Origin: an uncultured Gammaproteobacteria bacterium
GTDB lineage: Bacteria > Patescibacteriota > Microgenomatia > Levybacterales > UBA12049
NCBI GenBank assembly: GCA_965230895.1
Contig: OZ246394.1
Location: 778,627 to 831,954, forward strand
DNA: 53,328 bases
Direction: 5' to 3'
Positions 27,400 through 50,478 of the stretch are shown piece after piece. The translations under genes and the position numbers were made by a program. Numbering within the stretch: the first letter of the stretch is position 1; each line of letters begins with the position of its first letter. The notes beneath the pieces are model-generated. The model did no database searches. It saw only the letters and a program-made list of their open reading frames with translations, and was not told the DNA's origin.

Positions 27400-28209
27400 T
27401 TAGTTATAGAAGACTATTTTGCCGCGCTGTACGGACTTTGTAGAGACTTTTTTATCTTCGGTACGTATTTCATAATAAGACTCTATTTTATTGTTTCTCA
27501 GGCTTTTGAAGGACGCCGCATACATTTTATTTTGCATAGGGTAAATTACGTTGATGAGGTCGTCAACAGATGAACTCATATTATTCACCATTATCGATGC
27601 CTTTTGCGTGGCAAAATCATATTCACCGACATACAAAGTATCTTTATCATAATAGATGGCTGTAATGACCTTTGATGATTTATAGACCTGCTCTTGAGAA
27701 AGCGTTTGGGTATTTATGACGAGTAGTTCATTGTCTTGTTTGTTTGTATCTGGGCGGGTAACACAGAAGATTTCTGTTGAAGATTTTATAAATGCTTGGT
27801 CACACAATATATTTAAATTCTTCTTATTATAATATGTTTCAAAACCTAGCTTATTATAAATTGAGTTTCCTTGGAAGTAGTCCAAAATAACTTCATTCAT
27901 GTCCTTTTCTTTCTTTTTGGTTTTCATATTGTATATCTCAGACTTCCAATCATTAGGATGTACGACAATGAGATAGGGATAATGAATTGATATACGATCC
28001 GGGTATAGAGACAATTGTTCTTTTAAAGAGAAAAAAGTTAATGTAGGTTGTGAAAAAACAACGATATTATCTACTGCTTTTTGTTGCTGTATTTTTGCAG
28101 GAATATATTTTAAATACATGACGATACCGTAGATAACGAAAAAAGCTATCACGATAAGCAATACTCCAATCTTTAACTTATTTCGTGTTTCAGTACTTAG
28201 ATCATTCAT
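27400..28209 (-). CDS. Bitopic membrane protein (T4SS-associated, VirB8/TcpC-position analog)
   Basis: Single N-terminal TM (IGVLLIVIAFFVIYGIVMYL) plus a ~220-aa outside domain. Function inferred from position only. Confidence 0.4.
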   Translation of the reverse strand: MNDLSTETRNKLKIGVLLIVIAFFVIYGIVMYLKYIPAKIQQQKAVDNIVVFSQPTLTFFSLKEQLSLYPDRISIHYPYLIVVHPNDWKSEIYNMKTKKKEKDMNEVILDYFQGNSIYNKLGFETYYNKKNLNILCDQAFIKSSTEIFCVTRPDTNKQDNELLVINTQTLSQEQVYKSSKVITAIYYDKDTLYVGEYDFATQKASIMVNNMSSSVDDLINVIYPMQNKMYAASFKSLRNNKIESYYEIRTEDKKVSTKSVQRGKIVFYN

Positions 28210-28681
28210 ACGTAACTTTCGTTGGTTTCTTTTTGAGCTTCGTTACCACAATATGCTCATCCTCTTGCCCGTTTCTTCGTGTATAAAACAGAGTTTGTGT
28301 CAATGACTTTATTCGTGTCACTTCGTTGCCATGGTCATCTACAAAAGATTGGTGATAGGTATTTTCTTTTATAAATAATTTTGATATGAGTGCAAGAGGA
28401 AGGAGAAATTGCGGAAAGAGCAATATGGCTATAAAACAATATCCAGATAAAACATGATTGGGAACATTATGCGCAAAAGAAAATTTATTCACAACCTTTA
28501 ATAGTGAATGCTCAAGGTACGGAAATATTTTCCAGAAAAAGAACACATAGACGGTACACGTAAAAAGCACAGTTAAAATATCACGTATCGACTTATCTGG
28601 TAAGTAATAACAATACCAAATGGCAAGTCCCGTAAAAAATAACAGATATGGTTTAAACAAGAGTTTTTTTAATATTTGCAT
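28202..28681 (-). CDS. Polytopic small membrane protein (T4SS operon)
   Basis: 3-4 hydrophobic helices; overlaps neighbours. Confidence 0.4.
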   Translation of the reverse strand: MQILKKLLFKPYLLFFTGLAIWYCYYLPDKSIRDILTVLFTCTVYVFFFWKIFPYLEHSLLKVVNKFSFAHNVPNHVLSGYCFIAILLFPQFLLPLALISKLFIKENTYHQSFVDDHGNEVTRIKSLTQTLFYTRRNGQEDEHIVVTKLKKKPTKVTYE

Positions 28682-28684
28682 AGC

Positions 28685-29440
28685 TTATTGTATATACCCT
28701 AACGGATTAACCGGTGTCCATACTCCATTATTATTGACTCGAATTTCATAATGTAAATGTTCACCAGTCGTAAATCCGGTATCACCCATCGTTCCAATTG
28801 GTTTGCCTGCCGTTAATGTCTCGCCACTGGTTACAAAGATTTTATTTAAATGCATATCTATTGTTTTAATCGAATTATCATTATTCAAAATCTCGACGGT
28901 ATGCGATCCATATTGGTCAACATAATAATTTACTTTTCCATTCATGGTTGCGTATACGGCAACATCACCAGTGGTCTTAAATGTTGCATTTGACTGATAA
29001 TACGCATCATCAGGTACAAAATCAACTCCTGTATGAACTCCACCAAAAAATGTATAGCTTGGATCCATAAACCCTGCTGTGATTTTAACAAATGTTAAAC
29101 CTGATCCACCTAAAGGATTTTGTATTGGAATATCTGTAGAGACAAAACTACCATCTGCAGGGAGTGAGATATTACTTGCGTTGGCATTTTTGGTAAAAGA
29201 TGGATTAGTGAATATACCAATAATCGCAATAAACAAAACTACAATGAGTACGACTCCGTTGAGTAAAATCGTCAAAACCATTCCTCGAAATTGCACCAGC
29301 AGTTCGGCAGCTAAAGGGAATGGGATAAAGATATAGGCAACAGCTCGAACTATCCAATCCAAAATCAACTCAAATGGATTATTTAGGAGAAGCTGTCCTT
29401 TATCCACTACGTTTTTTAGATTATAAATGTGCTTGACCAT
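28685..29440 (-). CDS. Membrane-anchored M23 peptidase (cell-wall hydrolase of the transfer apparatus)
   Basis: HTGVDF and GEHLHYEIR metal-ligand motifs, with N-terminal TM helices. Confidence 0.8.
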   Translation of the reverse strand: MVKHIYNLKNVVDKGQLLLNNPFELILDWIVRAVAYIFIPFPLAAELLVQFRGMVLTILLNGVVLIVVLFIAIIGIFTNPSFTKNANASNISLPADGSFVSTDIPIQNPLGGSGLTFVKITAGFMDPSYTFFGGVHTGVDFVPDDAYYQSNATFKTTGDVAVYATMNGKVNYYVDQYGSHTVEILNNDNSIKTIDMHLNKIFVTSGETLTAGKPIGTMGDTGFTTGEHLHYEIRVNNNGVWTPVNPLGYIQ

Positions 29441-31607: not shown

Positions 31608-32422
31608 AGTGTATTTCGAAATTGACTTTGAAAATAAGTGATAAGCTGCTTTTCTGTTAATTGCATTGTTTGAATTCGTTCGAGTGCCAAGCTACTTGTA
31701 AACCGTCGTTGTGTATCATCCAGTTTCTGTGCTGCTTCCAGAAAATGTTTATCATCAGTTCCAAGAAGTGGTACTGAGAACACAGCATAGTATTTCATCA
31801 GTTGAAAAGTATTTTGCTCAACAAGCGCAGAAAGCTCTTTAATATAATTCTCAACTAATCCATTAACCTTCTCATTTGCAGTTTCGTAAAGTGAATAATA
31901 ATGTTCGTGATAGTCTTCAACAGTTGCTGTTTCTTTTCGTGAAATGAGCTGCACTTTCATTGGAAGTGTATGAAGCATCGTTTTTATATGATGATAATAT
32001 CGCTCCCGTTCTTCATCATTGAGAAGAGCGATATCAAATGGGCGTATTTCATAAACGGCAATAAGTTTTTTCTTACGAATTATATAATTACCTACCACCT
32101 TAAAATCTCCCGTTGTTTTCTCAAGCTCTCTCATTGTGAATTGCTTCTTTGCAAAGCTATATGATACTGCTCGAGGTATAATTTTATATAACGGTTGATG
32201 ATCAATCTTCAGTGTTGCCACGAGTGCATAAAAAAGTTCTACAAGAAAAATTGTTGCGATAATAAGACCCACTTGATCAACTCTGAGAACAACTTTATAC
32301 ATGAGTAGTGTGAGGAGTGCTAATGCTATACCTCCGATCAAAAAGACCACGGTATCGGTAAAGAACATTGTTCTAAAAATATGTTCTCGTAGATTATCTT
32401 TATAGACGCGTATTGTTCTCAT
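31604..32422 (-). CDS. VirB3-like membrane hairpin protein with cytoplasmic domain
   Basis: Two TM helices, then a domain resembling the VirB4 N-terminal region (IAVYEIRPFDIALLNDEERERYYHHIKTMLHTL). Lies directly upstream of VirB4 with a 4-nt overlap. Confidence 0.5.
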   Translation of the reverse strand: MRTIRVYKDNLREHIFRTMFFTDTVVFLIGGIALALLTLLMYKVVLRVDQVGLIIATIFLVELFYALVATLKIDHQPLYKIIPRAVSYSFAKKQFTMRELEKTTGDFKVVGNYIIRKKKLIAVYEIRPFDIALLNDEERERYYHHIKTMLHTLPMKVQLISRKETATVEDYHEHYYSLYETANEKVNGLVENYIKELSALVEQNTFQLMKYYAVFSVPLLGTDDKHFLEAAQKLDDTQRRFTSSLALERIQTMQLTEKQLITYFQSQFRNTL

Positions 32423-33957
32423 TTTTTAGTATTTCCTTTCTTCTCCTGTTGTATAGAGTGTTTAAATGGCTGTCTTACTCTTGGTTGCTCAGAACTAGGT
32501 TCATTCTTCATAGTGGGCTGGTTAGGAAAGTGAGAATTGTAACTGCCCCGTTTTATTGTTGAGAAATGTGTACGTGATTGTTTCGACTCTTTATCAGCTT
32601 TTGCAGATTGTATATTTGTACCCTGTGATTGTGGAGTAGCAGTTTCAGTCTGATTTTTTGTTGGTCTTTTCTGCATTGATTCTTTTCTCTCCTGCGTCGT
32701 GTTTTTTGTATAAGTTCGTGATGATTCAGTATGGGTGTTGTTTGTCGATTGTTTATTGGTATTTGCAGAGCGATACCCAGAATCTTTATATTCAGTCCCT
32801 GATGCATTTGGCATGTTTCTATCAGCAGTAGGCTTAGTACTTGGTTTTAAAAGTCCAATCTTGCGACCAATATATGTCCCAGCATAACTCCTTGCTCCAA
32901 CAGCGTGTCCTGTTATCGCACCACGTTTTATTTCTCGAACACTACCAGTTAATGCGCCGCTTCCCATCATACTTTGCGCATTGGCACTCATCATCGACCA
33001 CCCGTCACCGAAAATACGGCCGATAAAGATGTTAACCCCTCCTAGAAAAATCAGTGATCCCGAGAAAAGGAAAAGTGTTCCCATTGATCCACCATGTGAG
33101 GTAATAATACTGCCGAGGAGTGAGGAAACAATAGCAAAGCCTAAGACAAAAGCAGGTTGTTGAATGAGGAATGTAAACCATGTTTTAAAATATGTATTGG
33201 TAATATTTTCTGTTTTCTCGGAAAGTGCAAAGGGGAGCACAAGTGGAAAGATAACACTTAAGAAGAGGAGGGAGATAAAGCGAATCATTGCTTGGAAGAC
33301 AATGTAGAGAAAACCGATGAGAAAGAAGCCAATGGCAATAATGAGGACAATCATTTGAATAAGCGTATTGCCATTAACAATAAGCGTTGGGAATTGAGAT
33401 GACATTCCAGTTAGTCTTCGAAACTCCTCCGTATTGACATAAGCTTGAACAAAGGTTGCTATGTTATAAGCATTTTGCGCGATAATTTTTTCATTAAGGA
33501 GATTAATAAACTGAATGCTATATGAAAGAATAGAAGGGGTTACAATGAAAAGGACAACAACAAATACTAATCGTTTGAAGAAGTTTTTTAACTGCATCGT
33601 ATTATCGTGTGTAATATGTGAGAGCGCAGTATAGGAGACGATCAGCACAAAGATTGGAATTGCGATATCAGAAAAGATTGTTCGAAATTGACTGAGTCCT
33701 GATAATGCTGTTCCGTCTTTAAGAGTGATTGTATCTCCAAGTAATTCAGGTGTGTTAAAAATTAGTCCACTTGAAACCCAATCAAACCCAGAAAAGAAAC
33801 TGTTGAGTACACCACTTCCTGATGCCTGCGGTTCATTTGTAACATTTTGCTGGATAGATAACGTTGGAGAAAGTGCTTGAGCGTTAACTGGTTTTACCCC
33901 AAGAAGAAATACGATGAGAAGCAAAAAAATGCTAGACAATACTTTCATGGATAACAA
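32419..33957 (-). CDS. VirB6-like polytopic channel protein with long disordered C-terminal tail
   Basis: Signal peptide (..VKPVNAQA), about 6 TM helices, and ~150 aa of T/S/N/K/Q-rich low-complexity tail. Confidence 0.55.
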   Translation of the reverse strand: MLSMKVLSSIFLLLIVFLLGVKPVNAQALSPTLSIQQNVTNEPQASGSGVLNSFFSGFDWVSSGLIFNTPELLGDTITLKDGTALSGLSQFRTIFSDIAIPIFVLIVSYTALSHITHDNTMQLKNFFKRLVFVVVLFIVTPSILSYSIQFINLLNEKIIAQNAYNIATFVQAYVNTEEFRRLTGMSSQFPTLIVNGNTLIQMIVLIIAIGFFLIGFLYIVFQAMIRFISLLFLSVIFPLVLPFALSEKTENITNTYFKTWFTFLIQQPAFVLGFAIVSSLLGSIITSHGGSMGTLFLFSGSLIFLGGVNIFIGRIFGDGWSMMSANAQSMMGSGALTGSVREIKRGAITGHAVGARSYAGTYIGRKIGLLKPSTKPTADRNMPNASGTEYKDSGYRSANTNKQSTNNTHTESSRTYTKNTTQERKESMQKRPTKNQTETATPQSQGTNIQSAKADKESKQSRTHFSTIKRGSYNSHFPNQPTMKNEPSSEQPRVRQPFKHSIQQEKKGNTKK

Positions 33958-34388: not shown

Positions 34389-35321
34389 TTAATTTATTTG
34401 AACAGTATAGTCTGCTGTTTGTACATTCCCCTCATGTTGGAACTGGGTAAATAACTTATATACTCCAGGATCAGGGAATGTTGTGGAGAAATTAATTTTT
34501 GGTCCTGTACTTGGTTCTCCTTGTTGCATAGCCATCATATTATGTCCTTTAGATGAAGTACTATCTGCCGTAGTCATTGCATGGGTATGGATGAAGTCGA
34601 GTGTGCCTTCTTTTAGGATAACAGTATGCCCAAGGGCTCCTAGATAATTTTCTAAGTTTGTGACGGGTTTTCCATTTTTGGAAACATTTACACTGTAAGT
34701 AAGTTCTTTCTGTGCTTTAGCATCCCCTGAAAGGCCTGAAGTTATTGTATATAAACCATATGATTTTGTCTGTTGTGCGTCTGGCCTTGCTTGTTTTGCC
34801 ACATAGCTATTCATATTGCCAACATTGATATCTTGATATACAGTAACTGGAAGTTTTTGTGGGTTATCATCACCAGGAGTAAAGTCAGGAAAAAGGCGGT
34901 ATGGACCATTCTCTGGAAAGGTAACATCAACACTAAATTCTCCAGTTGCTTCATTAAATGTTGGGTGAAGATGTTGAAAATCTTGTAAATCTTTTCTAAC
35001 TGTTATAAAGTGCATGATTTTTTCATGTACCATATCAAAGTTCTTTAACACCACACCTTTATCGTTTTTTATTTTATACGCAATAGTTGTTTTTTGCCCA
35101 GGCTTTACATTATTCGTGTCAGAGATAACCTCGAGCTCGTAGCCTCTATGTGACTGATCGGCAGGACCACGAGTCATATCTGACATATTATGCCCCATTG
35201 ATGAATTATCATCTATCATAGTTCTAGGAAAGAAATAGATTATACCGACTACAATAATCGCTACTATAATAATTGCTGGGATTAGAATTTTTTTATTCAT
35301 ATATTGTTGCTTCATACCCAA
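34389..35321 (-). CDS. Secreted/anchored His/Met-rich protein with an internally duplicated beta-sandwich-like domain (putative metal binding)
   Basis: N-terminal TM, MGHNMSDM and KGHNMMAMQQ stretches. Repeated pattern ..MHFITVRKDLQDFQHLHP..VTFPENGPYRLF / ..GHTVILKEGTLDFIHTHA..TTFPDPGVYKLF. Start uncertain (35321/35300). Confidence 0.5.
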   Translation of the reverse strand: MGMKQQYMNKKILIPAIIIVAIIVVGIIYFFPRTMIDDNSSMGHNMSDMTRGPADQSHRGYELEVISDTNNVKPGQKTTIAYKIKNDKGVVLKNFDMVHEKIMHFITVRKDLQDFQHLHPTFNEATGEFSVDVTFPENGPYRLFPDFTPGDDNPQKLPVTVYQDINVGNMNSYVAKQARPDAQQTKSYGLYTITSGLSGDAKAQKELTYSVNVSKNGKPVTNLENYLGALGHTVILKEGTLDFIHTHAMTTADSTSSKGHNMMAMQQGEPSTGPKINFSTTFPDPGVYKLFTQFQHEGNVQTADYTVQIN

Positions 35322-35508
35322 GTGTTTCTATAATTGTCATAAGTTTTTCTTCAGGAACTTTGTTGGGGTCAAAGGTAACTTCTGTTTGTTGCTTGGCATA
35401 GCTTGTGCTTGATTCTTTAACTCCATTGGTATCTTCAAGTCCCCCATCAATATTAAATGCACAACTTGTGCAATGCATTCCATTTATGTTAAATTTTATA
35501 GTTTTCAT
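35293..35508 (-). CDS. copZ: HMA-domain copper chaperone
   Basis: MKTIKFNINGMHCTSCAFNI (MxCxxC). Start moved to ATG 35508. Confidence 0.85.
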   Translation of the reverse strand: MKTIKFNINGMHCTSCAFNIDGGLEDTNGVKESSTSYAKQQTEVTFDPNKVPEEKLMTIIETLGYEATIYE

Positions 35509-35510
35509 AG

Positions 35511-36560
35511 TTATATTACATTTATTGTTCCACGAAACATTCCCATACTGCACATAAAAGCAAGCTCTCCTGGTTCTGTTGGAGCTGTAAAGGTAATTTT
35601 ATCTGATGAACCAATTGGAACAACTTTTTGGATATTCATTGAAGGAAGTGTAAATGATTGTGTACATCCTCCTCCACCTGTATTTTTAAGATTTAACGTA
35701 ACTTGAGAGCCTGCTTTAACCGTTATGTTATCTGGATTGTACCCGGACTCTTCAATGGTAATTGTAGCTTCGTTAACTGGTCGAGCTTTTGCATTACTTT
35801 GGGTGGCAGCGCTTGCTACGGAGGATGAAACTTCACAATAACTAATCGCACAGAAGAAGTTCTTGCTGATATTCTCAAGTGTTATCTTACTTCCTGTAAG
35901 TGCCAGAACATTATTGAGATTAAAGACAGCAAGAAGGATAAGTGCAAATGCCGCAAGTTTGGTAAATTTTTGCTGCATACTTTCTCCAAGCCGAGTTGCT
36001 AAGTAGCCAAATACGAAGAATAGTGGAGATGTTCCAAGTACAAATGCAAAGAGAATAGCTGCACCTGAAAGAGGGTTACCTGATGCAATTGCAAGCGCCA
36101 TCATTGCCTGTGTAGTGCCGCATGGGATAAATACAGTAAAGGCACCAACAATTGCTGGAGCTAATATACTATTACTTTTCGACTCTTTTCTAACTAATCG
36201 TGTCAAGAAACGGGGAGGTTGGATAATAAAATAACGGAATATTGGATGTACATTAAGTAAATTAAACGCTGTACCTAACATGAAAATGCCAACTGCAAAT
36301 TGTAGTACAATATTTGCAGTAAGAGATAATTGGAATAGAGAGCCAAACCATCCAAGTAAAAATCCAAGAATAGTATAAGCTGCAAGTTTAGCCGCTAAGA
36401 AAGAAAGTATAGGAAGTGCGTTCCCAGAACGCTTAGTATCTTCTTTTAGTTTTTGTTCATGACGTTGAGCTATTGTGGCAGCCAATAAGCCACCTTGTAC
36501 TGCAAGGCAGGTTAACGCGCCTGCAAATAATCCTGTTAAAAAAATAGTAATTAAGTTCAT
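35511..36560 (-). CDS. DsbD_2/TauE-like permease fused to a C-terminal cupredoxin-like domain
   Basis: TCLAVQGG and FIPCGTTQ membrane Cys motifs. C-terminal ITVKAGSQVTLNLKN..LAFMCSMGMFRGTINVI. Confidence 0.6.
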   Translation of the reverse strand: MNLITIFLTGLFAGALTCLAVQGGLLAATIAQRHEQKLKEDTKRSGNALPILSFLAAKLAAYTILGFLLGWFGSLFQLSLTANIVLQFAVGIFMLGTAFNLLNVHPIFRYFIIQPPRFLTRLVRKESKSNSILAPAIVGAFTVFIPCGTTQAMMALAIASGNPLSGAAILFAFVLGTSPLFFVFGYLATRLGESMQQKFTKLAAFALILLAVFNLNNVLALTGSKITLENISKNFFCAISYCEVSSSVASAATQSNAKARPVNEATITIEESGYNPDNITVKAGSQVTLNLKNTGGGGCTQSFTLPSMNIQKVVPIGSSDKITFTAPTEPGELAFMCSMGMFRGTINVI

Positions 36561-36562
36561 AG

Positions 36563-36991
36563 TTATTCTATAATTATTTTACCCGTCATCCCTAGTGCCT
36601 TATGATTTTTAACTGAACAGTAATATTCAAATGTGCCTATTTTGCTTGCTGCAAATTCAACTGTTTGTGTATCTTTTTCTTCAAGCAATTGAGTCGCCAC
36701 ATTTAATTCATCAATTCTAAAATCATGTAGACCTTCAATATTATGGAATATTATCTTTATTGTTTCTCCTTTTTTGACACGCATTAGACCGGGCTGAAAC
36801 ATATAGTTTGATCCAATAACATCAAACTCGCGCACATTGCCCATGAGTGTGCCAGTTACTGAACTCTGCTGAGTATTTTGTAACATATCCTCTTTGTTGT
36901 CCCAGCCAAATAAATCACTAAGTGGCTTATACATTGACAAAGCTAGGAAAAAAATAAGTATTCCTATGGTTATTTTCTTCCAAGTTGGCAT
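36563..36991 (-). CDS. Membrane-anchored type-1 cupredoxin (plastocyanin/amicyanin-like)
   Basis: EGLHDF ... YYCSVKNHKALGM (H, C-x4-H-x4-M ligand pattern). Confidence 0.75.
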   Translation of the reverse strand: MPTWKKITIGILIFFLALSMYKPLSDLFGWDNKEDMLQNTQQSSVTGTLMGNVREFDVIGSNYMFQPGLMRVKKGETIKIIFHNIEGLHDFRIDELNVATQLLEEKDTQTVEFAASKIGTFEYYCSVKNHKALGMTGKIIIE

Positions 36992-37058
36992 AATTTAAGT
37001 CTACGACTAATTGTAGTAGATCATTGTAAATATATCAACTTCTTTAATTACCATATTA

Positions 37059-37655: not shown

Positions 37656-37667
37656 AAATATTTTTTA

Positions 37668-37708: not shown

Positions 37709-37729
37709 CTTAGCTCTTATTAAACCAAT

Positions 37730-40259: not shown

Positions 40260-40309
40260 ATAATACCAGACATGCTATAAGATTTACAATCATGACAGAA
40301 AATTATTGG

Positions 40310-41299: not shown

Positions 41300-41316
41300 A
41301 GTGGATTTAATAGTTG

Positions 41317-42021
41317 TTAATGCGTAGACCAAGAAATTATTTCGTTTAGGTTTTCATTTTTCTTTATTTTACTGATTACTTTATTAGTATTGGTTGCTAT
41401 TACATAGATATCACTATCTTTTGAGTTTCTTGTATATAGTTTTGTTGCATCTTTCGATAGTGCTACTTCATGAGGTAGGCTTTCAGGTTGTAACTGTATC
41501 ATTTGTTCAACTTTATAATTTGAAGTATTTATTTTATAGATAGCATTCCCTGTCTCAGCTGCTATATAAGCAGACTTATTATCTGGCGTAAAGACAAGAT
41601 CACCCAGATGTATGTTATTTCCCATTTGTATCCTTTCTTTAACAGTATTTGTACTGAGATCAATTACTAGTACTTGGTCGCTTGTCATCATCAGATGCAG
41701 GTGTTCTTTGGCATTTCTATGAAATGCGCTTAGCTGATCCTGAGAAGCACTTGCTGTTACCCAAACATATTGTTTACTTGGTGCCATTTGAATATCATGA
41801 GGGGAAAGTTCTACCGTAATGTTTTCCTCCTTAGAAGAAAGACTAATTGAAGTAATTTCTTTATTTGTCTTTGCATCCTCAATAATAACTTGGTTTCCCA
41901 CAGCCTTAAAAACAAGTTCTTCCGAGTTTGACTTTAACCTATCGGAAAATATAAATGAGATTGCACCAATTGCAATAATGACTACAAGAATAATTCCAAT
42001 TAATATTTTTTTCTTATGCAT
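41317..42021 (-). CDS. Membrane-anchored YVTN-type beta-propeller repeat protein
   Basis: N-terminal TM. Repeated ..YVWVTASAS.., ..AYIAAETGNAIYKINTSNYKV.., ..LYTRNSKDSDIYVIATNTNKV. Confidence 0.55.
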   Translation of the reverse strand: MHKKKILIGIILVVIIAIGAISFIFSDRLKSNSEELVFKAVGNQVIIEDAKTNKEITSISLSSKEENITVELSPHDIQMAPSKQYVWVTASASQDQLSAFHRNAKEHLHLMMTSDQVLVIDLSTNTVKERIQMGNNIHLGDLVFTPDNKSAYIAAETGNAIYKINTSNYKVEQMIQLQPESLPHEVALSKDATKLYTRNSKDSDIYVIATNTNKVISKIKKNENLNEIISWSTH

Positions 42022-42039
42022 AGGGTTTGATGTTCCTAA

Positions 42040-44265
42040 TTAAATTTTCACTCGCTTTAGAAGTAGCGAATTTGTAACTACAGATATTGAACTACTTGCC
42101 ATAGCTACAGAGGCAAAAATAGGATTAAGGAGAGGTCCTCCAAATGGAAAGAGAACCCCCATAGCAACGGGAATGAGCACGATATTATACCCAAATGCCC
42201 AGAACAGATTCAGTTTTATTGTTCGCATTGTCTTTTTAGACAGTTCAAACGCTGCTGCTACACTTCGCAAATCTTTATTAATAAGTGTTATATCAGCAGC
42301 TTCAATGGCAATATCAGTTCCTGTTCCCATAGCTATACCCACATCAGCAGCCGCAATTGCAGGAGCATCATTAATTCCATCACCAACCATTGCTACTTGT
42401 TTGCCTTCTGCTTGTAATTTTCGTACTTCTGCTTCTTTCTGATCAGGTAAGACTTCAGCGAGTATTCGTTTAATTCCAAGTTGCGAAGCGATAGCCTTTG
42501 CTGCTCTTTCGTTATCACCAGTGATCATAATAACTTCTATGCCTCGTTTTACAAGCCGAGCAACGCCCTCTTTGGCTGTATCCTTAATCGTATCTGCAAC
42601 GGCAATCAGCCCAAGGAGCTTTCCCTCAGATGCAAGAAGCATAACTGTTTTGCCTTCATTCTCAAGTTTCTCAATGTCATACTGAACTTGTTTCAGGATC
42701 TCTATTTTCTCTCTATCCATTAATCGCTTATTGCCAAAGAATACTTTTCTCTTTCCGATAGTTCCTTCAACCCCATGTCCAGCAATACCATTAAACTTTG
42801 TTACAGGGAAGACTTTTACTTTCTGAGTTTCAGCATATTTTACAATTGCTTCAGCTAGTGAATGCTCTGAGCCTTTTTCGATAGATGCAGCAAGTTCTAA
42901 TACATCATCCTTTTTAGCTTTATTGAGTGGAATAATATCCGTTACTTCAGGTTTACCTTTGGTAAGCGTGCCAGTTTTATCAAACACAATTGCAGTTATC
43001 TTATTAGCAATTTCCAAACTGGATGCTTCTTTGAAAAGTATCCCATGTTCCGCACCTTTTCCAGTACCCACCATAATCGCTGTTGGAGTAGCCAATCCCA
43101 TTGCACAAGGACATGCAATGATAAGAACTGCTACTGTATTAAGTAGAGCAAAAAGAAATGCAGGGTTTGGACCAAATATATACCAGATACCAAATGTTAA
43201 AAAGGCAAGCATAATAACTATTGGGACAAAGTAGGATGAGACAACATCTGCAAGCTTTTGGATTGGTGCTTTACTGCCTTGTGCTTCTTCGACGAGCTTT
43301 ATAATTTGAGCAAGCATAGTATCTGAACCTACTTTAGTCGCTTTATAGGTAAAGGATCCGGTTTTGTTGATCGTTGCCCCAATGACCGTGTCTCCTTTTG
43401 CAATATCGACAGGTATACTTTCTCCTGTAACAACCGATTGATCGATACTTGATTCACCATCAATGACCGTTCCATCAACTGGGATTTTCTCACCTGGTCT
43501 TACTCGAAGAACATCACCAATTTGTACCTCTTCAAATGGAATATCCACTTCTTTGCCCTCTCGTATTACTCGGGCTGTTTTTGCTTGCAGTCCAATGAGT
43601 TTTTTAATCGCCTGAGAAGTTCCTGATTTCGCTTGGGCTTCAAAATACCTCCCTAAGAGAATAAGTCCAATGACGATCACAGAAACATCGAAATAGGGCA
43701 TATGTTCTATACCTAAGTTCATGACCACTTCAGGGAAAAATGTAACAAATACTGAATATGCAAAAGCCACTGTTGTTCCAAGTGCCACCAATGTATCCAT
43801 GTTTGCTGTGCGATGTTTTAAAGCAGGTATTGTTGCCTTATAAAATTCTAGTCCTGCCCAAAATTGAATTGGTATAGCAAGCAATAATTGTGTGAAAGGA
43901 TTTTGCAAGATTGCTGGTGCTGTATTCATCAAACCGGGAAAACTTCCCCAAAGTAAAAACGCTCCAGAGGTCAGACTAGCAATAACCTTTACTTTGAGAT
44001 TGGCCAGCTCTTTTTTCTTTTCTTCTTCTCTCAGTTCTTCATTTTTTTCTTTGAGATCTAATGTATATCCTGTTTGAGAAACTGATTCAGCAAGCTGCTC
44101 TGGAGTGCAGTTATTTTCATCATAGGTGACAGTTGCTTTTGTTGTTGCTAAATTCACTACAGCATCTGTAACCCCAGGTGTTTTCTTCAACGCCCGTTCT
44201 GTAACTCTAACACATGAAGCACAATGCATGCCTTTAATTGGAAATGATTTTTTAACTTCACTCAT
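42040..44265 (-). CDS. copA: Cu(I)-translocating P1B-type ATPase
   Basis: HMA GMHCASC, CPC in the TM region, [15 protein letters not shown]. Confidence 0.95.
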
Positions 44266-44267
44266 AT

Positions 44268-44627
44268 TTATGTAACTATGATTTTCCCATGGAACATATT
44301 CATACCACAGGCAAAACCAAATTCTCCTTTCTCTTTTGGCGTTACTTCAATCGTAACTTTTTTATTGAGCGGCAAATATTTTTTGATGCGGAAATCTCCT
44401 AATACAACTTCTTCCAAACAACTTGAAGGGTCTTTTCTCGTGAATGAAATTCTTGTAGTTTTATTTACGGGTATAGAAATAGTATTGGGAGAGTAACCAC
44501 CTTCAACTGTAATATCTACAGAGTCAGTAACAGAAAAAACTTCTTCTTTTTTCATGAGGAAGAACCAATAAGTAAAGGTCATTCCTGCTAGCATAAATAG
44601 TGCGACTAAAATTTTATCAAGTTCCAT
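44268..44627 (-). CDS. Membrane-anchored cupredoxin-like domain protein
   Basis: Start moved to MELDKIL (SD AAGGAGGT upstream). [17 protein letters not shown], the same C-x-M-x-M-F-x-G motif as the tail of 35511-36560. Confidence 0.6.
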
Positions 44628-44680
44628 AATTTGTGTTACCTCCTTGGAAGAAGCGCAGATTTGCACCTCTTCTAAAAAGA

Positions 44681-45103
44681 TTACTGGGTAAATCCCCAAT
44701 CTTTTTGCCATTGTTGCATTTGGCTAATTTCACTTTCTTGTGCAGAAATAATGTTTTTGGATAGATCTTTTATTTCTTGATGACCTGCATTTGCTTCAGC
44801 TGCTTTTGCCATCTCAATAGCACCTTGATGATGAGCAATCATTCCTTCAATAAATGCTTTATCAAAATCATCACCAGACTTACCTTCTAAAGCAGTCTTC
44901 ATATCTGCCATACTCATTTGATCCATTGTCGTACTACCATGAGTCATTCCTTCCATTGAGTCATTTGATGGAACCATCGCTGATGGTGTTGTATTAGTTG
45001 TTGCTAATTTTGAAGCGGCCGTCATTTGGCTTGCTACAACTGTTCCAGAAATTACAGCTCCTACAATTAAACCAACAATTCCATATGTTAATGTTTTTTT
45101 CAT
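44681..45103 (-). CDS. DUF305-family (ferritin-like four-helix) metal-resistance protein
   Basis: DKAFIEGMIAHHQGAIEMAKAA and ISAQESEISQMQQW. Confidence 0.75.
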   Translation of the reverse strand: MKKTLTYGIVGLIVGAVISGTVVASQMTAASKLATTNTTPSAMVPSNDSMEGMTHGSTTMDQMSMADMKTALEGKSGDDFDKAFIEGMIAHHQGAIEMAKAAEANAGHQEIKDLSKNIISAQESEISQMQQWQKDWGFTQ

Positions 45104-45122
45104 ATATTCACCTCCTTTACTT

Positions 45123-45911
45123 TTATTTTACCGTTACTATTCCCCCGATACTTGCGTTAATGTGATCGTGATATGTCCATACACCTTTTTTATCAAAGAC
45201 ATATCGATATATACTGCCTTTTTTCGTTGGCTTGAACTGGTCAAATGTTGGTAAATCTGTATGGGATGGATGGGGAGCTGAAGCAACCCACATATCAGTA
45301 CTACTTTCGTTAACAAATTCAACCATACTACCTTGAGTGACTTCAATTTTCTCTGGTATAAAACCTTTGTCAGTATATTTCACTTTTATCATACTTTGCA
45401 TACCAGCCATATTGTGGCCCAACATTGCTGAAGAATCACCTTCGGTAATAGTAGCGGGGAGTGATTTGCCTGTTTTAACATAATTAGCTGTCATCGTCCC
45501 GTTTTCGTCTAACATCGGACGGTCAAAATCATTAAATACCCCATCATCTCCATAATCCTCGTAAATCATCACAATAAGTTTTTTATTAGAAATATCTGCA
45601 TTTCCTAACGGTATAGTTATATTTGCGTATGTTCCTTTATCTAAAGGTTTACTTATCTCCACAACTTGACTTAGCTTATCTCCTTCCATCTCACGTACAA
45701 CAAGAAATCCTTTTTTTGATAAAGTTACGCTTTTAACGAGTACTTTATCTTTTGGTTCTTGAGGAAATACTTGTAATGTCTCTTGTTTTGTAGTCTTATT
45801 TCCTGATGCGTTCTTCTCATGTTTATCTGTCTGTTGATTAAAATAAAGGTAGAGTCCAAAAGCTACCATTAAAAATAGTACAAATGTAATTAGTATTTTT
45901 TGTATCTTCAT
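45123..45911 (-). CDS. Membrane-anchored protein with a C-terminal cupredoxin-like domain
   Basis: N-terminal TM. C-terminus FIPEKIEVTQGSMVEFVNES..HPSH..WTYHDHINASIGGIVTVK. Confidence 0.5.
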   Translation of the reverse strand: MKIQKILITFVLFLMVAFGLYLYFNQQTDKHEKNASGNKTTKQETLQVFPQEPKDKVLVKSVTLSKKGFLVVREMEGDKLSQVVEISKPLDKGTYANITIPLGNADISNKKLIVMIYEDYGDDGVFNDFDRPMLDENGTMTANYVKTGKSLPATITEGDSSAMLGHNMAGMQSMIKVKYTDKGFIPEKIEVTQGSMVEFVNESSTDMWVASAPHPSHTDLPTFDQFKPTKKGSIYRYVFDKKGVWTYHDHINASIGGIVTVK

Positions 45912-45913
45912 AT

Positions 45914-46186
45914 CTAACTTTTTTTCTTAAATACTTGCATTACTTCATTTATTGTTTCTTCTTTATTTCCTTTGCTAATCGCGTCCGCAACACAAGTCTT
46001 TAAATGGTTTTCTAGAATGACATTTCCAGTTTCCTTTAATCCGCTTTGCACTGCCTGCAATTGATGCATAACATCAATGCAATACGTGTCAGTCTCGACC
46101 ATGGAAATAACTTTATCAATGTGTCCTCGAGCAATCTTTAATCTGTGAAGAATTCGTTCTTGTTGATCTTTTGGTCTATAAGCCAT
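45914..46186 (-). CDS. csoR: CsoR/RcnR-family metal-sensing repressor
   Basis: RLKIARGHIDKV..DTYCIDVMHQLQAV..HLKTCV (C-H-C ligands). Start at ATG 46186-84. Confidence 0.85.
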   Translation of the reverse strand: MAYRPKDQQERILHRLKIARGHIDKVISMVETDTYCIDVMHQLQAVQSGLKETGNVILENHLKTCVADAISKGNKEETINEVMQVFKKKS

Positions 46187-46235
46187 ATATCCCCCCAATA
46201 GGGATATATTACTACACCCTGTAGGAGATTGTCAA
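46185..46235 (-). promoter_or_regulatory. Candidate cargo-operon promoter carrying two operator-like boxes
   Basis: Minus strand: TTGACA (46235-30), 18 nt, TAATAT (46211-06). The spacer holds TACTACAC-c-cTGTAGgA (46210-26, plus-strand reading). ATATATCCC-N7-GGGATATAT (46185-46209) overlaps the csoR ATG. Confidence 0.55.
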
Positions 46236-46415: not shown

Positions 46416-46667
46416 TTATCTATTTTTTTTTTCAAGTTTTAATATCTTTTCTGTCGCAATCATAAGATTGTTTTCTATTTGAACATGTTTTTGATTATGA
46501 ATGGCGTGAGTTACCCCAAATACAATATCCAACGATTCGTCTTCGTCTAAAAAGAGTAAAATTTTTGTCATAAGCAGGGTGTGCATATTATCGCTCGAAA
46601 AAAGATCATTCTGCCAACCTTTATCTTGCAATTGCTTTTTTAGCTCTTCTGTAGTATTCATAATCAT
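46416..46667 (-). CDS. Hypothetical small protein, divergent from the XRE gene
   Basis: 83-aa ORF with no recognised motif. Confidence 0.4.
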   Translation of the reverse strand: MIMNTTEELKKQLQDKGWQNDLFSSDNMHTLLMTKILLFLDEDESLDIVFGVTHAIHNQKHVQIENNLMIATEKILKLEKKNR

Positions 46668-46709
46668 TAACTAATGACTTAATAAAATAGTCATTTTTAA
46701 TCTTAAATA

Positions 46710-46725
46710 TTAAGTTATAACTTAA
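46710..46725. promoter_or_regulatory. Perfect 16-bp palindrome TTAAGTTATAACTTAA in the divergent intergenic region (operator candidate)
   Basis: Self-complementary, 35 nt upstream of the XRE ORF. AT-rich, so chance occurrence is plausible. Confidence 0.3.
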
Positions 46726-46760
46726 TAAACTTTTTGTCAAGTTCCTGCTACGTTTAAGGA

Positions 46761-46988
46761 GTGAATACGAAAAAAAAGATTTCCCAAAAAGACTATAAAT
46801 TTGCACGATATCTTCAAAAAATTAGGCAATCAAAAAATGTCACGCAAGAAGAATTAGCTGAAAAGATTGGCGTGTCACAAACGTGGATTGCTTATATTGA
46901 AACTGGCAGGAATAAACCTAACTTAAAAATGCTTGAAAAGATAGGAAAAGCCTTAGGTGTGAAAGTAAAAGATTTAATTCCTTTTTAA
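46761..46988 (+). CDS. XRE-family HTH regulator
   Basis: QKIRQSKNVTQEELAEKIGVSQTWIAYIETGRNKP. The GTG start overlaps the SD-like AAGGAG, so the start is uncertain. Confidence 0.75.
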   Translation: MNTKKKISQKDYKFARYLQKIRQSKNVTQEELAEKIGVSQTWIAYIETGRNKPNLKMLEKIGKALGVKVKDLIPF

Positions 46989-47119: not shown

Positions 47120-49606
47120 GTGTACAATTATCAATTATTTACCAATTTAGATAGTATTCCTAATCTCTTGTTTTTTACTTTTCTTTTTTGTTTCATGATT
47201 GCTCTCATTTGTAAGCTAATATATATCTGGCTAAAAATTCGCTCAAATTACTCATTGCTTGAAGTTATTCCACCACATACAGCCAAACAAAGTCCTTTTG
47301 CGACTGAACAGTTTTTTACGACATTGCATTCGCTAATACAACAAAGGTCAACTATTGAAAAACTTCTTGGAACAAAAAAACTCATTGCACTTGAGATTGT
47401 CTCGAGTAAAAATAGTGGTATAAGATTTTTAGTACGAGTAGTACATGAAGATGCAGCAGTTATCAAGAAATATATACTCTCGTTACTTCCCGGCGCACAA
47501 ATTGCTGTTGTTAATGATTACCTACCAATATCAACACAAGATAACTGGCGTACAGTTACGCTCAAATTAGCAAAACATTTTTCTCATTCTCTTCAGGAGC
47601 AAATACATCTCACTCAGCATGATCCAATGACATATATTACCGGACAAATGACCAACCTTGAGAAAGATGAACTTATTGCTGTGCAATATATTCTCACACC
47701 GGCAACGAAGCAAAGTATTCGACCTGAACTACTTCTTAATCTAATTGCATTTATCATCCTTACACCAACAACACTTGTGAGTTGGCTTATATCCCATGAT
47801 AAGAAAACAGAAGCACTTCCATTTTGGCTGTTTGCTACAAAGAAACATGATAAGAAAGATATTAACGAAAAAGTACAGAAAGAACTCTTTACAGCGACCA
47901 TCAGACTGTATGTGACGCAAACGGCCAGACAGCACGTAACAACTCGTCTCAAAGGGCTTGTTACATCCTTTGCAAGTTTCCGAAGTGCGAACCAACAGGC
48001 ATTGCGTGTAAAGAAACTTTTGTCAATGTTTGCAGAGACTTCTTTGCTGAAAACAGTATTCTTTCTGCAACTGAAATATCGACTGCTTTCTCTAACAAAT
48101 AATCCTGTCCTTTCCACTTCAGAAGTTGCTGGGCTGTTTCATTTCCCAACAGCTTTGAATCAAACAGAAGATATTGTTAAAAGTAAATCCACTATTCTAC
48201 CTGCACCACTTAGTCTGAAAAGGACTGATAAACCATACGATATATTTTTTGCTCAGAATATTTTTGCTGAGACAGTAACTCCAATAGGTCTTACTAAAGA
48301 TGAAAGACGACGACATGTTTATGTTTTAGGAGCTACTGGAATGGGGAAGACAACACTTCTTGCAACAATGATCCGAGAAGATATTAAGAATGGTAAAGGT
48401 GTCTGTGTTATAGATCCTCATGGGAATTTAATTGAACAGATATTACCACTTATTCCAAAAGAGCGAGCAAAAGATGTCATTCTTTTTGACCCAGATGATA
48501 CTGAATTTCCTATTGGTCTCAATTTGCTTGCACTTCCAAAAAATCTTTCGAGTCAGGAGCTTCTACGCCAAAAAGAGCATGTCACGAGTAATCTCATTTC
48601 GGTTATTACAAAAATGTATGCTGCCCGCTTTACTGGGCCAAGAATGGAATATATTCTTCGAAATACGATTCTCACAGCACTTGAAACAGAGCAGCCAACA
48701 CTTTTTACTATCCAACAACTTCTTGTTGATGCCCCATATCGAAAAAAGGTTGTAGCAACACTCAAGAGCCCGATGCTAAAACTCTTCTGGACCAAAGAAT
48801 TTGCCCAAATGGGATCGTTCCAAAAAGCAGATGCAGTCGCACCAATTACGAACAAAATTGGTAAGTTTCTCACATCCTCCCTTGCAGCTAATATCCTCGG
48901 ACAAAAAGAAACAAAGCTTAATTTCTCAGATATTATGGATTCAAATAAAATCCTGTTGTGTGATCTCACAAAGGGGAATATAGGGGAGGATATGAGTACT
49001 ATGTTTGGTTCTCTCATTATTGCAGGAGTCCAACTTGCCGCACAGCGCAGGGCAAGAATTCCTGAAAAGCAAAGAGTGGATTTTTACTTATATATCGATG
49101 AATTCCAAAACTTCGCAACGAGCTCGTTTGCACAAATTATGAGTGAAGCAAGAAAGTATCGGCTCAATGCTATTTTGGCACATCAAACGATTGCCCAAAT
49201 AGAAGATCATGACTTGGTAAAAGTGATTCTTGCCAATACCGGAAGTATTATTAGTTTCCGAACTGGTGGACCACTTGATGAAGAATTTATCCTGCCATTC
49301 TTTGCACCCAATGTCGCCAAAAATGAAATCACCAATCTAACGCCATACCATTTTTATATGAAGATCAATAATGATACGCCGCAAGAGTGTTTTTCAGGAG
49401 AAACAATCTATCAAGAGATTCCAGAAAAGAGAGCATTCATCGACCAAATGAAAACCCACTCAAAAGAACAATACGCAAGTAATAAGAAACAAGTTGAACA
49501 AGAAATTCAGGAAACATTTCTGAATCAGACATCCATACCCAAACGATCAAAAGAGATAAAAAATACCATGAAAAAAGACTTACCAGAAGAGCAAATTCCA
49601 TACTAA
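47120..49606 (+). CDS. VirD4/TraG/TraD-like type IV coupling protein with a long N-terminal membrane extension
   Basis: Walker A GATGMGKTT, Walker B YLYIDEFQNF, RKYRLNAILAHQTIAQ. N-terminal ~370 aa with TM helices. GTG start as in the track is uncertain. Confidence 0.8.
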   Translation: MYNYQLFTNLDSIPNLLFFTFLFCFMIALICKLIYIWLKIRSNYSLLEVIPPHTAKQSPFATEQFFTTLHSLIQQRSTIEKLLGTKKLIALEIVSSKNSGIRFLVRVVHEDAAVIKKYILSLLPGAQIAVVNDYLPISTQDNWRTVTLKLAKHFSHSLQEQIHLTQHDPMTYITGQMTNLEKDELIAVQYILTPATKQSIRPELLLNLIAFIILTPTTLVSWLISHDKKTEALPFWLFATKKHDKKDINEKVQKELFTATIRLYVTQTARQHVTTRLKGLVTSFASFRSANQQALRVKKLLSMFAETSLLKTVFFLQLKYRLLSLTNNPVLSTSEVAGLFHFPTALNQTEDIVKSKSTILPAPLSLKRTDKPYDIFFAQNIFAETVTPIGLTKDERRRHVYVLGATGMGKTTLLATMIREDIKNGKGVCVIDPHGNLIEQILPLIPKERAKDVILFDPDDTEFPIGLNLLALPKNLSSQELLRQKEHVTSNLISVITKMYAARFTGPRMEYILRNTILTALETEQPTLFTIQQLLVDAPYRKKVVATLKSPMLKLFWTKEFAQMGSFQKADAVAPITNKIGKFLTSSLAANILGQKETKLNFSDIMDSNKILLCDLTKGNIGEDMSTMFGSLIIAGVQLAAQRRARIPEKQRVDFYLYIDEFQNFATSSFAQIMSEARKYRLNAILAHQTIAQIEDHDLVKVILANTGSIISFRTGGPLDEEFILPFFAPNVAKNEITNLTPYHFYMKINNDTPQECFSGETIYQEIPEKRAFIDQMKTHSKEQYASNKKQVEQEIQETFLNQTSIPKRSKEIKNTMKKDLPEEQIPY

Positions 49607-49707
49607 AAAGTGTCTATAACGTTACACACAAATAATGGTTAATATTGAGGCTATTATTTAAAAAAGTCTGTCACCCTATCCCTATAAAGAGAGATGAAAT
49701 AATATTT

Positions 49708-50478
49708 ATGCAAAATAAAGATATCACCAAAACGCAAAACAGCATCTTCTTCCTACTCTATAAATTCCGTTTCCTTCATACCAATCAAATCCAAAAACTA
49801 CTCAATCACAAATATAATACACGCATCAATACATGGCTTAACGACCTCACAAAACAAGAATACCTCCAAAGACAGTATGATACACGAACCATTATTAAAA
49901 AACCGGCAGTCTATACATTAACCAAAAAAGCCCGAACACTCTTAAAATCGAATAACAGCTATTCACTGGCAGCCTTAAATAAAATCTATCGTGAAAAACA
50001 CCGATCACAAACCTTTATTACTCATTGCCTGCTTATTGCAGATATCTATTTAACACTGCTATCAAAAAACGGGAAAGACGAAACTATCACGTTTGAGACA
50101 AAAAATACTCTCTCGGACTATGACTATTTCCCCCAAGACATACTTGACGCCTATATCGCCATCAAAAGCCCAACGAGCATCAATCGCTACTTCACAACCG
50201 TAATTGATCCTACTCCTCGTCTGTATATCGCAAAAGGCATTGTACGGCAGTATTTTACCTATTGGCAAAGTAGCAATTGGGAAGAGAACACCGATAAGCC
50301 CTTTCCTGCAATTCTTCTCATTTGCCCTGATGAAAAAGTGCAACGAATGCTGGGTTATTACATTGCCAAAACACTCCATGAAGAACAATCAGATATACAT
50401 TTTTACCTTTCAACATTCGAGGAGGTAAAAAAGAGAGGATTTGTCAATATAACCACCGCTGTAGTATCTTTGGGATAG
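49708..50478 (+). CDS. Replication-relaxation (Replic_Relax-like) family protein
   Basis: N-terminal winged-helix-like IFFLLYKFRFLHTNQIQKLL and the general layout of this family. Lies directly after the coupling protein. Family call from memory of the pattern, not from a search. Confidence 0.55.
   Translation: MQNKDITKTQNSIFFLLYKFRFLHTNQIQKLLNHKYNTRINTWLNDLTKQEYLQRQYDTRTIIKKPAVYTLTKKARTLLKSNNSYSLAALNKIYREKHRSQTFITHCLLIADIYLTLLSKNGKDETITFETKNTLSDYDYFPQDILDAYIAIKSPTSINRYFTTVIDPTPRLYIAKGIVRQYFTYWQSSNWEENTDKPFPAILLICPDEKVQRMLGYYIAKTLHEEQSDIHFYLSTFEEVKKRGFVNITTAVVSLG

Follow-up and report, generated by a model that had tools for sequence, protein, structure and literature searches.

A putative integrative and conjugative element of a Patescibacteria-specific family at a tRNA-Glu gene of a Candidatus Levybacteria genome

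The stretch of DNA analyzed here (the window; 53,328 nt of contig OZ246394.1) probably holds an integrated integrative and conjugative element (ICE), recognized by its content and context, that belongs to a Patescibacteria-specific family and sits at the 3' end of a tRNA-Glu(CTC) gene, the sole tRNA gene in the window. Pfam calls were judged against the curated cut-offs, and NCBIfam, ARAGORN and tblastn were also used. Four hallmarks of an ICE are found in one block, namely a VirB4 ATPase, a VirD4-type coupling protein (T4CP), a Replic_Relax protein of the MOBC type and a serine integrase, and the observed gene content is confirmed as that of an ICE (Table 1). A string of minus-strand genes begins right of the tRNA gene, and the XRE, T4CP and Replic_Relax genes lie on the plus strand. 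The recombinase stands at one end of the block and the T4CP-relaxase pair at its other end, enclosing the genes of a type IV secretion system (T4SS), so that any excision taking both must also take the T4SS. The sequences show intact Walker motifs, an intact motif around the catalytic serine and intact M23 metal ligands. G+C content ranges from 33 to 40% across the whole window, with no sharp compositional island.

The original prediction, made from the letters alone, had described a minimal conjugation module. Every gene it named is found where it was placed, with the VirB2-like protein just below the Pfam cut-off. Its VirB4 and VirD4 assignments are backed by profile hidden Markov models (P-loop_TraG, AAA_10 and DUF87 for the former, TrwB_AAD_bind and TraG-D_C for the latter, all above cut-off). 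The recombinase and tRNA genes lie to the left of the region it covered, and a 158-aa gene, a DUF2958 gene, a truncated PHP-like open reading frame (ORF) and a second XRE gene lie to its right.

The integrase is a large serine recombinase with XisF/CcrB-like NCBIfam matches, the motifs YLRVSTEEQ and RLDRISRQ, and a Zn_ribbon_recom match of 23.9 bits, just under the cut-off of 25.3. Its ORF extends 57 nt into the convergent tRNA-Glu gene, with the final 18 codons and the stop codon antisense to the tRNA, and the 18 C-terminal residues, GDPSGNRTRDLQDENLTS, are the antisense reading of the 3' part of the tRNA. Related recombinases end in a similar way at other loci (numbered with an L): 49 nt inside a tRNA-Glu(CTC) in L011, where the recombinase is 58% identical, 20 nt inside a tRNA-Leu(GAG) in L014, 22 nt inside a tRNA-Pro(TGG) in L034, with overlaps of 17 nt and about 5 nt with tRNA-Ala in L026 and L050, and inside a tRNA-Glu(TTC) in L104, the last overlap being taken from tblastn and ARAGORN coordinates. 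The overlaps span positions 25473-25530 in the window, 16152-16200 in L011, 16926-16945 in L014 and 7080-7101 in L034. These five tRNA species provide strong comparative evidence, at the sequence level, for site-specific integration at tRNA 3' ends, and the left junction of the element at tRNA-Glu is well supported. The recurrent overlap suggests, in addition, that the attachment site of the element (attP) overlaps the 3' end of the integrase gene itself. Directly upstream of the recombinase gene, a small gene encodes a protein of 93 aa with homologues at the same place in L011, L014, L034, L104 and L069. Like the 83-, 158-, 159- and 269-aa products of the element, this protein has no Pfam match at E values up to 1; it is a candidate directionality factor.

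The locus can be compared with L051, a Logan contig of the same sample series that lacks the element and shares the flank gene order (60-92% protein identity). Between the tRNA-Glu gene of the window and the orthologous gene of L051 (1478-1550), the 32 nt upstream are nearly identical, and the tRNA itself differs over its full length, with compensating changes in the acceptor stem and a CCA end encoded only in the window. That the tRNA has changed more than its noncoding flank hints that much or all of it was replaced by element-borne sequence. At another locus, L098, a full tRNA-Glu(TTC) gene (1-90) is followed after 13.9 kb by a 50-nt tRNA 3' fragment (14021-14095) abutting a related recombinase gene, an arrangement resembling two insertions in tandem at one tRNA hot spot; upstream of the fragment, L098 and L069 (3645-3845) have non-tRNA sequence in common. 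Logan contigs from five samples (L005-L009) end inside the tRNA-Glu gene of the window (25498-25529), at an assembly-graph branch point that may reflect heterogeneity of the attachment site in the population or a tRNA sequence common to several organisms. These contigs were rejected as evidence of excision, given that tRNAs routinely break metagenome assemblies.

The core of the T4SS is the 721-aa VirB4 ATPase, with a Walker A motif GQSGMGKS and a Walker B motif LFIDEAH. Its two best NCBIfam models both stay below cut-off, conju_CD1110 with 252 bits (cut-off 325) and VirB4_plasma with 251 bits (cut-off 590). The adjacent 272-aa protein aligns to positions 12-237 of VirB4_plasma, the 894-residue model of Mycoplasma ICE VirB4 (E 5e-14), and the ATPase to positions 177-660. 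Because the two proteins match different parts of one model, the smaller one is assigned by profile comparison as the split-off N-terminal domain of VirB4 (TrsD-like). It is consequently not the plain VirB3-like protein it had been taken for, since the NCBIfam match points to the VirB4 N-terminal domain. The precomputed annotation lists a weak PF26593 TraC-like match for it, and scans at E values up to 1 give no Pfam match. Alignment of the two protein families with hhalign finds no homology between them, as expected for complementary parts rather than paralogues.

Among the other components, the VirB2-like pilin is 91-94% identical in relatives, and its Roizmanbacteria homologue has a recorded Pfam TrbC match that carries no "weak" mark. 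The VirB6 and VirB2-like proteins also give faint matches to the Mbov_0396 and pLS20_p028 models of NCBIfam. The 269-aa membrane protein is 68-71% identical in all close relatives, and the 159-aa membrane protein 42-63% where measured (L010-L013). With these two membrane proteins lacking a family match, no VirB8/PrgL-like component is recognizable; a single-sequence AlphaFold2 (AF2) model of the 269-aa protein as a VirB8 candidate was discarded for its pLDDT of 41. Nor does any Pfam or NCBIfam match to a VirB7/9/10 outer-membrane core appear among the element ORFs scanned.

Homologues of VirB4 are 49-94% identical among the 120 matches listed, most of those beyond the close relatives at 49-60%, and the named ones in this set are mostly Patescibacteria, labelled Levy-, Roizman- or Saccharimonadales. 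Against the VirB4 proteins of 3,650 plasmid records identity is at most 28%, the best plasmid matches coming from Bacillus, Lactobacillales, Enterococcus and Streptomyces, all of them monoderm. By this identity comparison alone, VirB4 groups with the Patescibacteria proteins and not with those of plasmids or ICEs. The characterization of the module as Gram-positive in style stands, in the sense that the nearest plasmid relatives of its VirB4 belong to Firmicutes and Actinobacteria, at no more than 28% identity.

The T4CP carries a Walker A motif GATGMGKT and a Walker B motif YIDEFQ, and its long N-terminal extension is annotated as DUF8128 in the precomputed annotation. A scan of genome contigs finds 37 related loci in GTDB genomes, at 34-43% identity save for one relative at 78%. 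They are mostly labelled Patescibacteria (Saccharibacteria, Berkelbacteria, Woesebacteria, Levyibacteriota), with a few other or uninformative labels. A relaxase homologue lies within 10 kb of the T4CP gene in about 25 of them, a serine recombinase in about 8, and a VirB4 spanning most of the protein in 6; an XRE gene stands 5' of the T4CP gene in many related loci.

The Replic_Relax protein encoded next to the T4CP, a product of 256 aa from the ATG at 49708 as judged from its homologues, matches PF13814 with 43.4 bits against a cut-off of 25.3. PF13814 represents the MOBC relaxase class in CONJscan (PMC5357655), and MOBC relaxases are PD-(D/E)XK-type, non-HUH enzymes (PMC12857230). The earlier remark that no HUH relaxase is visible is therefore in substance wrong as a statement about the element, since a non-HUH candidate of the PF13814/MOBC class is present. 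A total of 39 homologues were found, and the three with informative labels or hosts are all from Patescibacteria. The AF2 model built on the homologue alignment (pLDDT 87) places a winged helix at the N terminus, ahead of an alpha-beta-beta-beta-alpha-beta core. Its top match in the PDB is FokI (E 1e-3, TM 0.34), and the remaining top matches are winged helices of the MarR/PadR type. Within the subfamily D112 never varies, and E96 and Y94 show little or no variation. Together, the profile match and the model make it likely that the protein is a MOBC-class relaxase.

The relatives of the element combine a conserved backbone with variable cargo. In the closest one, the P0001 contig (VirB4 94% identical), a relaxase gene, the T4CP gene, three further genes, seven T4SS genes, a small gene and the recombinase gene follow each other over about 16 kb; genes of 141 and 177 aa occupy the position of the 158-aa and DUF2958 genes, as read from the gene table alone. 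The Levyibacteriota genome GCA_013816255.1 (L010/L014; VirB4 85%, T4CP 78%, relaxase 82%) holds the same set with a Fic gene between those for T4CP and relaxase. There, too, the 158-aa and DUF2958 genes adjoin the relaxase gene (DUF2958 is also found in L015). In L014 the cassette of small gene and recombinase is inverted, sits after DUF2958 and, on the relaxase side, abuts the tRNA-Leu(GAG). Drawn as a circle, the integration cassette has simply flipped while keeping its two neighbours; the element is thereby linearized in the opposite sense, with the T4SS inside in both arrangements. In L026, L034 and L050 a recombinase, a T4CP, a relaxase homologue, VirB4 and an M23 protein lie within 12-14 kb. 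These loci outline a family of integrative conjugative and mobilizable elements in Patescibacteria, of which the window contains a complete-looking member with a native T4SS.

The block could in principle be a composite, in which a mobilizable unit of T4CP, MOBC protein and recombinase, as seen in many Saccharibacteria loci, lies beside a resident chromosomal T4SS without forming one transmissible unit with it. The counts among the T4CP loci, with a relaxase homologue nearby far more often than a near-full VirB4, would fit such a history, and so would integrative mobilizable elements (IMEs) of class 8 in streptococci, which join a VirD4 coupling protein, a PF13814/MOBC relaxase and a serine integrase but have no T4SS (Coluzzi et al. 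2017, PMC5357655). It is nonetheless very improbable here, as the T4SS is flanked by the recombinase and the T4CP-relaxase pair and excision without it is not possible, changes of cargo and the inversion of the cassette have left the T4SS between or beside these genes in the P0001 contig and L014, and L026, L034 and L050 hold all five components close together.

The cargo spans about 12 kb, half of the originally reported span, and contains no conjugation machinery. Its metal genes encode CsoR and a P-type ATPase of the CopA type, an HMA chaperone, a DUF305 protein and a DsbD_2-cupredoxin fusion, along with three further cupredoxin-domain proteins. Pfam also reports YtkA-like and DUF7282-cupredoxin matches in the cargo. 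A BlaI/BlaR1-type pair of repressor and sensor, a sortase, DsbA and an alpha/beta hydrolase are also encoded there. This copper cargo is absent from the 94% (P0001 contig) and 85% (L010/L014) relatives, and a similar set for copper and cation efflux lies beside the pilin gene, at the same place, in L055. In L011 the pilin gene is accompanied instead by a Tat segment of 48% G+C, and in L113 by SOS-polymerase and Pif1 genes. A variable cargo bay is located between the pilin gene and the XRE/T4CP genes.

Cargo such as copper resistance may have moved between ultra-small bacteria, possibly across classes. VirB4 is 80% identical between metagenome-assembled genomes (MAGs) labelled Levybacteria and Saccharimonadales, and some close VirB4 relatives are labelled "Saccharimonadales" or "Limnocylindrales", which makes cross-class transfer a possibility, although such labels are unreliable and G+C content does not settle the question. 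L011 itself comes from a MAG labelled Candidatus Limnocylindrales (Chloroflexota; GCA_035526025.1, contig DATLDE010000005.1, 280 kb). Its flank carries GT2, MptA_B and PMT_2 genes in the order of the window, 53-67% identical to the Levybacteria-type flank; either its label or its binning must be in error. In L057 (CP065004.1, Candidatus Roizmanbacteria, 1322668-1344776) a seven-gene T4SS module (VirB4 52%) lies between two rve_3 transposase genes, in the vicinity of a large methyltransferase/ResIII restriction system and a KAP NTPase, which is another mobile-looking context for the module.

Several observations weigh against the reading of the window as an ICE, and concern its right end, its relaxase and the history of the locus. 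At the right end, no significant attR is found. Elsewhere in the window the tRNA sequence recurs only as its terminal 10-mer GGGGTCACCA (25521-25530 and 52186-52195), and 33% of shuffles score at least as high as the best local alignment of this 10-nt repeat. The copy at 52186-52195 is a candidate attR whose position is suggestive and proves nothing. The size of about 27 kb with an att repeat, as previously proposed, depends on this non-significant repeat. The C terminus of the integrase may change on excision; a crossover at the 10-mer would extend its ORF by 22 codons into 52184-52116. Long tRNA-derived direct repeats are found in none of L011, L014, L026, L034, L048 and L050. In addition, no junction of an excised circle or an empty site was found, the exact 51-nt tRNA pattern being absent from the JGI metagenomes; a 25-nt tRNA pattern retrieves there mostly unrelated bacteria and four useful loci.

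The right boundary is also ambiguous in comparison with L051, where the orthologous tRNA-Glu is directly followed by a 148-aa gene. The block inserted relative to L051 measures about 31.8 kb and extends past the window. The Logan contig L109, identical to 41898-53328 of the window, runs 8.8 kb beyond its end and carries to the right a 60-aa ORF, a 653-aa repeat protein, a 422-aa protein and a PMT_2 protein, and then a 147-aa gene. The latter lies about 31.8 kb downstream in the genome of the window and is 84% identical to the 148-aa gene of L051; upstream of it, a decayed stretch resembles the 3' third of the L051-type tRNA at about 18 of 28 positions. An end of the ICE at about 52.19 kb, with a second segment of 5 kb to its right, is favoured over a single larger block reaching beyond the window, because the DUF2958 remnant of L014 directly adjoins the integrase cassette, so that the backbone ends soon after DUF2958.

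The candidate relaxase is divergent, with zero tblastn matches in 72,556 PLSDB plasmids. Its Pfam alignment covers just positions 3-114 of the 191 in the profile, and the residue of the third nuclease motif, (D/E)xK, is not conserved, being T, V or D in the subfamily.

As for the history of the locus, T4SSs have already been described in Patescibacteria. A 2025 survey of 3,035 genomes of the phylum found VirB4 in 2,417, with most of these proteins forming a clade nested in MPF_FATA and with TrsD, VirB3, VirB6 and VirB2-like proteins as the usual partners (PMC12102498). Relaxases numbered 109 in this survey, 58 belonging to MOBC; those near a t4cp gene came to 39 and those near virB4 to 15 (of 2,474 cases). 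It concluded that the T4SSs of Patescibacteria are probably not conjugative, relaxases being rare (PMC12102498). The Patescibacteria T4SS, essential in Southlakia for epibiotic growth, is widely regarded as exapted for that lifestyle (PMC12102498, PMC12857230). Integrases and element boundaries were outside the scope of the survey, which delimited no ICEs (PMC12102498), and the literature search found no paper delimiting an ICE in Patescibacteria. The earlier judgement that such elements are poorly documented is only half true, given this survey of the secretion systems.

An essential T4SS that mostly occurs without a relaxase suggests that the block might be a domesticated or decaying ICE, that is, an old integration that no longer transfers, whose T4SS serves the epibiotic lifestyle through host attachment or exchange, a role put forward for most T4SSs of Patescibacteria, and whose recombinase, T4CP and relaxase are leftover or reused. 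The original prediction had likewise named host interaction, in place of DNA transfer, as a possible role of the T4SS. Such a fate would agree with the lack of a significant attR and with the truncated PHP ORF near the right end. An element also sits at the same tRNA-Glu in the syntenic L011, where its proteins are mostly 58-82% identical to those of the window (42-94% overall) and clear flank orthologues 53-67%; element and flank have diverged to a similar extent, which is compatible with old vertical inheritance at this site. Furthermore, L011, L012/L013, L055 and L113, with VirB4 at least 80% identical, have the T4SS module, and the 7-10 kb visible there include neither a T4CP nor a relaxase gene. 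Domestication is still unlikely, considering that every catalytic motif is intact, that the backbone is 75-94% identical in relatives with other cargo and another tRNA site, that the close relative L051 has no element at its tRNA-Glu, and that cargo turnover appears to be ongoing (copper here and in L055, Fic in L014, Tat in L011, SOS-polymerase in L113).

If the window holds an integrated ICE, as we infer, excision, nicking and transfer would most likely follow the course of a classical ICE. The large serine recombinase would excise the element as a circle and re-integrate it, as its anatomy and its recurrence at five tRNA species suggest, with attP overlapping the 3' end of its own gene and the small conserved 93-aa protein encoded upstream possibly helping. 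The Replic_Relax protein, going by its MOBC-class family alone, would nick the origin of transfer (oriT), probably in the AT-rich repeats at 46.2-47.1 kb, and the adjacent VirD4-type coupling protein would pass the DNA to a minimal monoderm T4SS. This channel would consist of VirB4 with its split-off TrsD-like N-terminal domain, VirB6, the M23 wall hydrolase, two membrane proteins and the VirB2-like pilin.

A further-reaching suggestion, to be taken as tentative, is that one branch of the Patescibacteria T4SSs still acts as mating channel for a self-transmissible ICE family that moves cargo among bacteria of the candidate phyla radiation (CPR). Such a family would be marked by a T4CP of the DUF8128 type, a MOBC-like relaxase of high divergence and a serine integrase with its C terminus encoded antisense to the tRNA target. 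The role of the near-universal T4SS of Patescibacteria is an open question on which this locus bears directly; with its relatives, it makes a concrete and testable case for DNA transfer persisting in at least one branch. The locus would also represent a route for metal resistance to spread among bacteria with tiny genomes. If the suggestion is true, it would provide a natural conjugation-and-integration toolkit for CPR genetics, with parts for engineering intractable organisms such as the integrase and its tRNA attachment site, oriT and relaxase, and the T4SS.

Table 1. Features of the element and their positions in the window.
Feature	Position	Strand	Basis
tRNA-Glu(CTC), integration target, attL	25454..25530	+	ARAGORN
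Large serine recombinase (integrase)	25473..27044	-	Pfam Resolvase and Recombinase, above cut-off
93-aa small conserved protein, partner of recombinase	27044..27325	-	Position conservation
269-aa bitopic membrane protein, last gene of T4SS module	27400..28209	-	Conserved
159-aa membrane protein	28202..28681	-	Position kept in L010-L013, L055, L057, L113
M23 peptidoglycan hydrolase, VirB1 analogue	28685..29440	-	Pfam Peptidase_M23, 62.9 bits; HxxxD and HxH motifs
VirB4 ATPase, 721 aa	29442..31607	-	Pfam P-loop_TraG, AAA_10, DUF87
TrsD-like protein, 272 aa, two N-terminal transmembrane helices	31604..32422	-	NCBIfam VirB4_plasma
VirB6/TrbL polytopic channel protein, long hydrophilic C-terminal tail	32419..33957	-	Pfam TrbL, 33.9 bits
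VirB2/TrbC-like pilin, 85 aa	33978..34235	-	Pfam TrbC, 25.8 bits, below cut-off of 27.9
Cargo: copper/metal resistance and envelope redox genes	34389..46198	-	Pfam
CopA P-type ATPase, 741 aa	42040-44265		Translation; Pfam HMA/E1-E2_ATPase/Hydrolase
83-aa ORF (-), intergenic repeats and XRE gene (+)	46416..46988		Divergent regulatory unit
XRE repressor	46761-46988	+	Pfam HTH_3
VirD4-type T4CP, long N-terminal extension	47120..49606	+	Pfam TrwB_AAD_bind, 44.7 bits; TraG-D_C, 25.9 bits; above cut-off
Replic_Relax protein, candidate MOBC-class relaxase	ORF 49645-50478; 49708..50478 from internal ATG	+	PF13814
158-aa protein and DUF2958 protein, backbone genes	50521..51461	-	Pfam DUF2958
Right-end region: truncated PHP-like ORF, second XRE (51898-52110), 10-nt copy of tRNA 3' end (52186-52195)	51604..52195	+	

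Between the divergent 83-aa ORF and XRE gene lies a repeat-rich intergenic region (46655-46760) of direct and inverted repeats, in which a 32-nt unit occurs in two copies beside an inverted repeat bearing ACTTAATAAA. An AT-rich palindrome (47004-47025) is found 5' of the T4CP gene. Each is a candidate for an operator or for oriT. The truncated PHP-like ORF (86 aa, 51604-51864), close to the presumed right end, opens like a PHP-domain nuclease/ATPase (VDLHVHTP) but has an early stop, and is a gene fragment. At the end of the window, a 260-aa ORF (52491-53328) is part of the 653-aa protein that continues in L109 (10594-12555). This protein contains internal repeats of about 370 nt that are 74-79% identical (families D1 and D2), and is probably a variable surface protein.

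Protein similarity in the flanks assigns the host to Candidatus Levybacteria (Microgenomates, Patescibacteria). Among the named homologues of the flank GalE, proteins of Candidatus Levybacteria/Levyibacteriota MAGs rank first (73-77%), followed by "Patescibacteria group" entries, and a lineage look-up assigns Levyibacteriota to the Microgenomates group of Patescibacteria. The guess of a CPR/Patescibacteria genome, which flanks pointing to Firmicutes would have contradicted, is borne out by these matches. The left flank (1-25400) is a glycosyltransferase/flippase/PMT_2/GT87 cluster without universal marker genes, and a 228-aa protein encoded in the flank has no match in the scan of genome contigs. 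Positions 1-24700 form an unusually long run of envelope glycosylation genes, with about ten GT2/GT4, three PMT_2 and three GT87/MptA-like genes, two flippases, a YfhO-like protein and GalE, and the run resumes beyond the element (PMT_2 and acyltransferase genes in L109).

Elements of the kind described here, ICEs that combine an MPF_FATA-like T4SS with a MOBC relaxase and a serine integrase, are well known in Firmicutes. Compared with MPF_FATA systems such as Clostridioides CTn CD1110, Mycoplasma ICE Mbov_0397, pCF10 and pGO1, the window shares the monoderm layout without VirB7/9/10 and has conju_CD1110 and VirB4_plasma as its best VirB4 models. It differs from them in its VirB4 identity of 23-28%, its scores below cut-off, the splitting of VirB4 into proteins of 272 and 721 aa, and the lack of a recognizable VirB8/PrgL-like protein or adhesin. 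Contrary to canonical Gram-positive systems, which have no VirB2, it also encodes a VirB2-like pilin, a known peculiarity of Patescibacteria.

The streptococcal IMEs of class 8 associate the same three families, with adjacent T4CP and relaxase genes, but they are mobilizable only, whereas the window has a T4SS between the integrase and the T4CP-relaxase pair. The candidate relaxase resembles the MOBC relaxases TraX of pAD1 and MobC of CloDF13, which are PD-(D/E)XK restriction-endonuclease-like, in its PF13814 match, in the winged helix with a nuclease-like core and in having a T4CP as neighbour. It differs in having no tblastn-detectable similarity to plasmid MOBC proteins and in a catalytic triad that is not assignable with confidence.

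The closest known systems are the Patescibacteria-clade T4SSs (Quinonero-Coronel et al. 2025, PMC12102498), among which the T4SS of Southlakia epibionticum (Wang et al. 2023, as cited in PMC12102498) serves as a comparator. The window shares with this clade the phylum, the core of VirB6, TrsD-like protein and VirB4, a peptidase gene directly downstream of virB4, and a pilin of the VirB2-like type, a component uncommon in monoderm systems. In contrast to the clade, its T4SS is not near dnaA within the window, has one pilin gene rather than an array, and lies in a block that is bounded by a tRNA-targeting serine recombinase and includes a T4CP and a MOBC-class protein.

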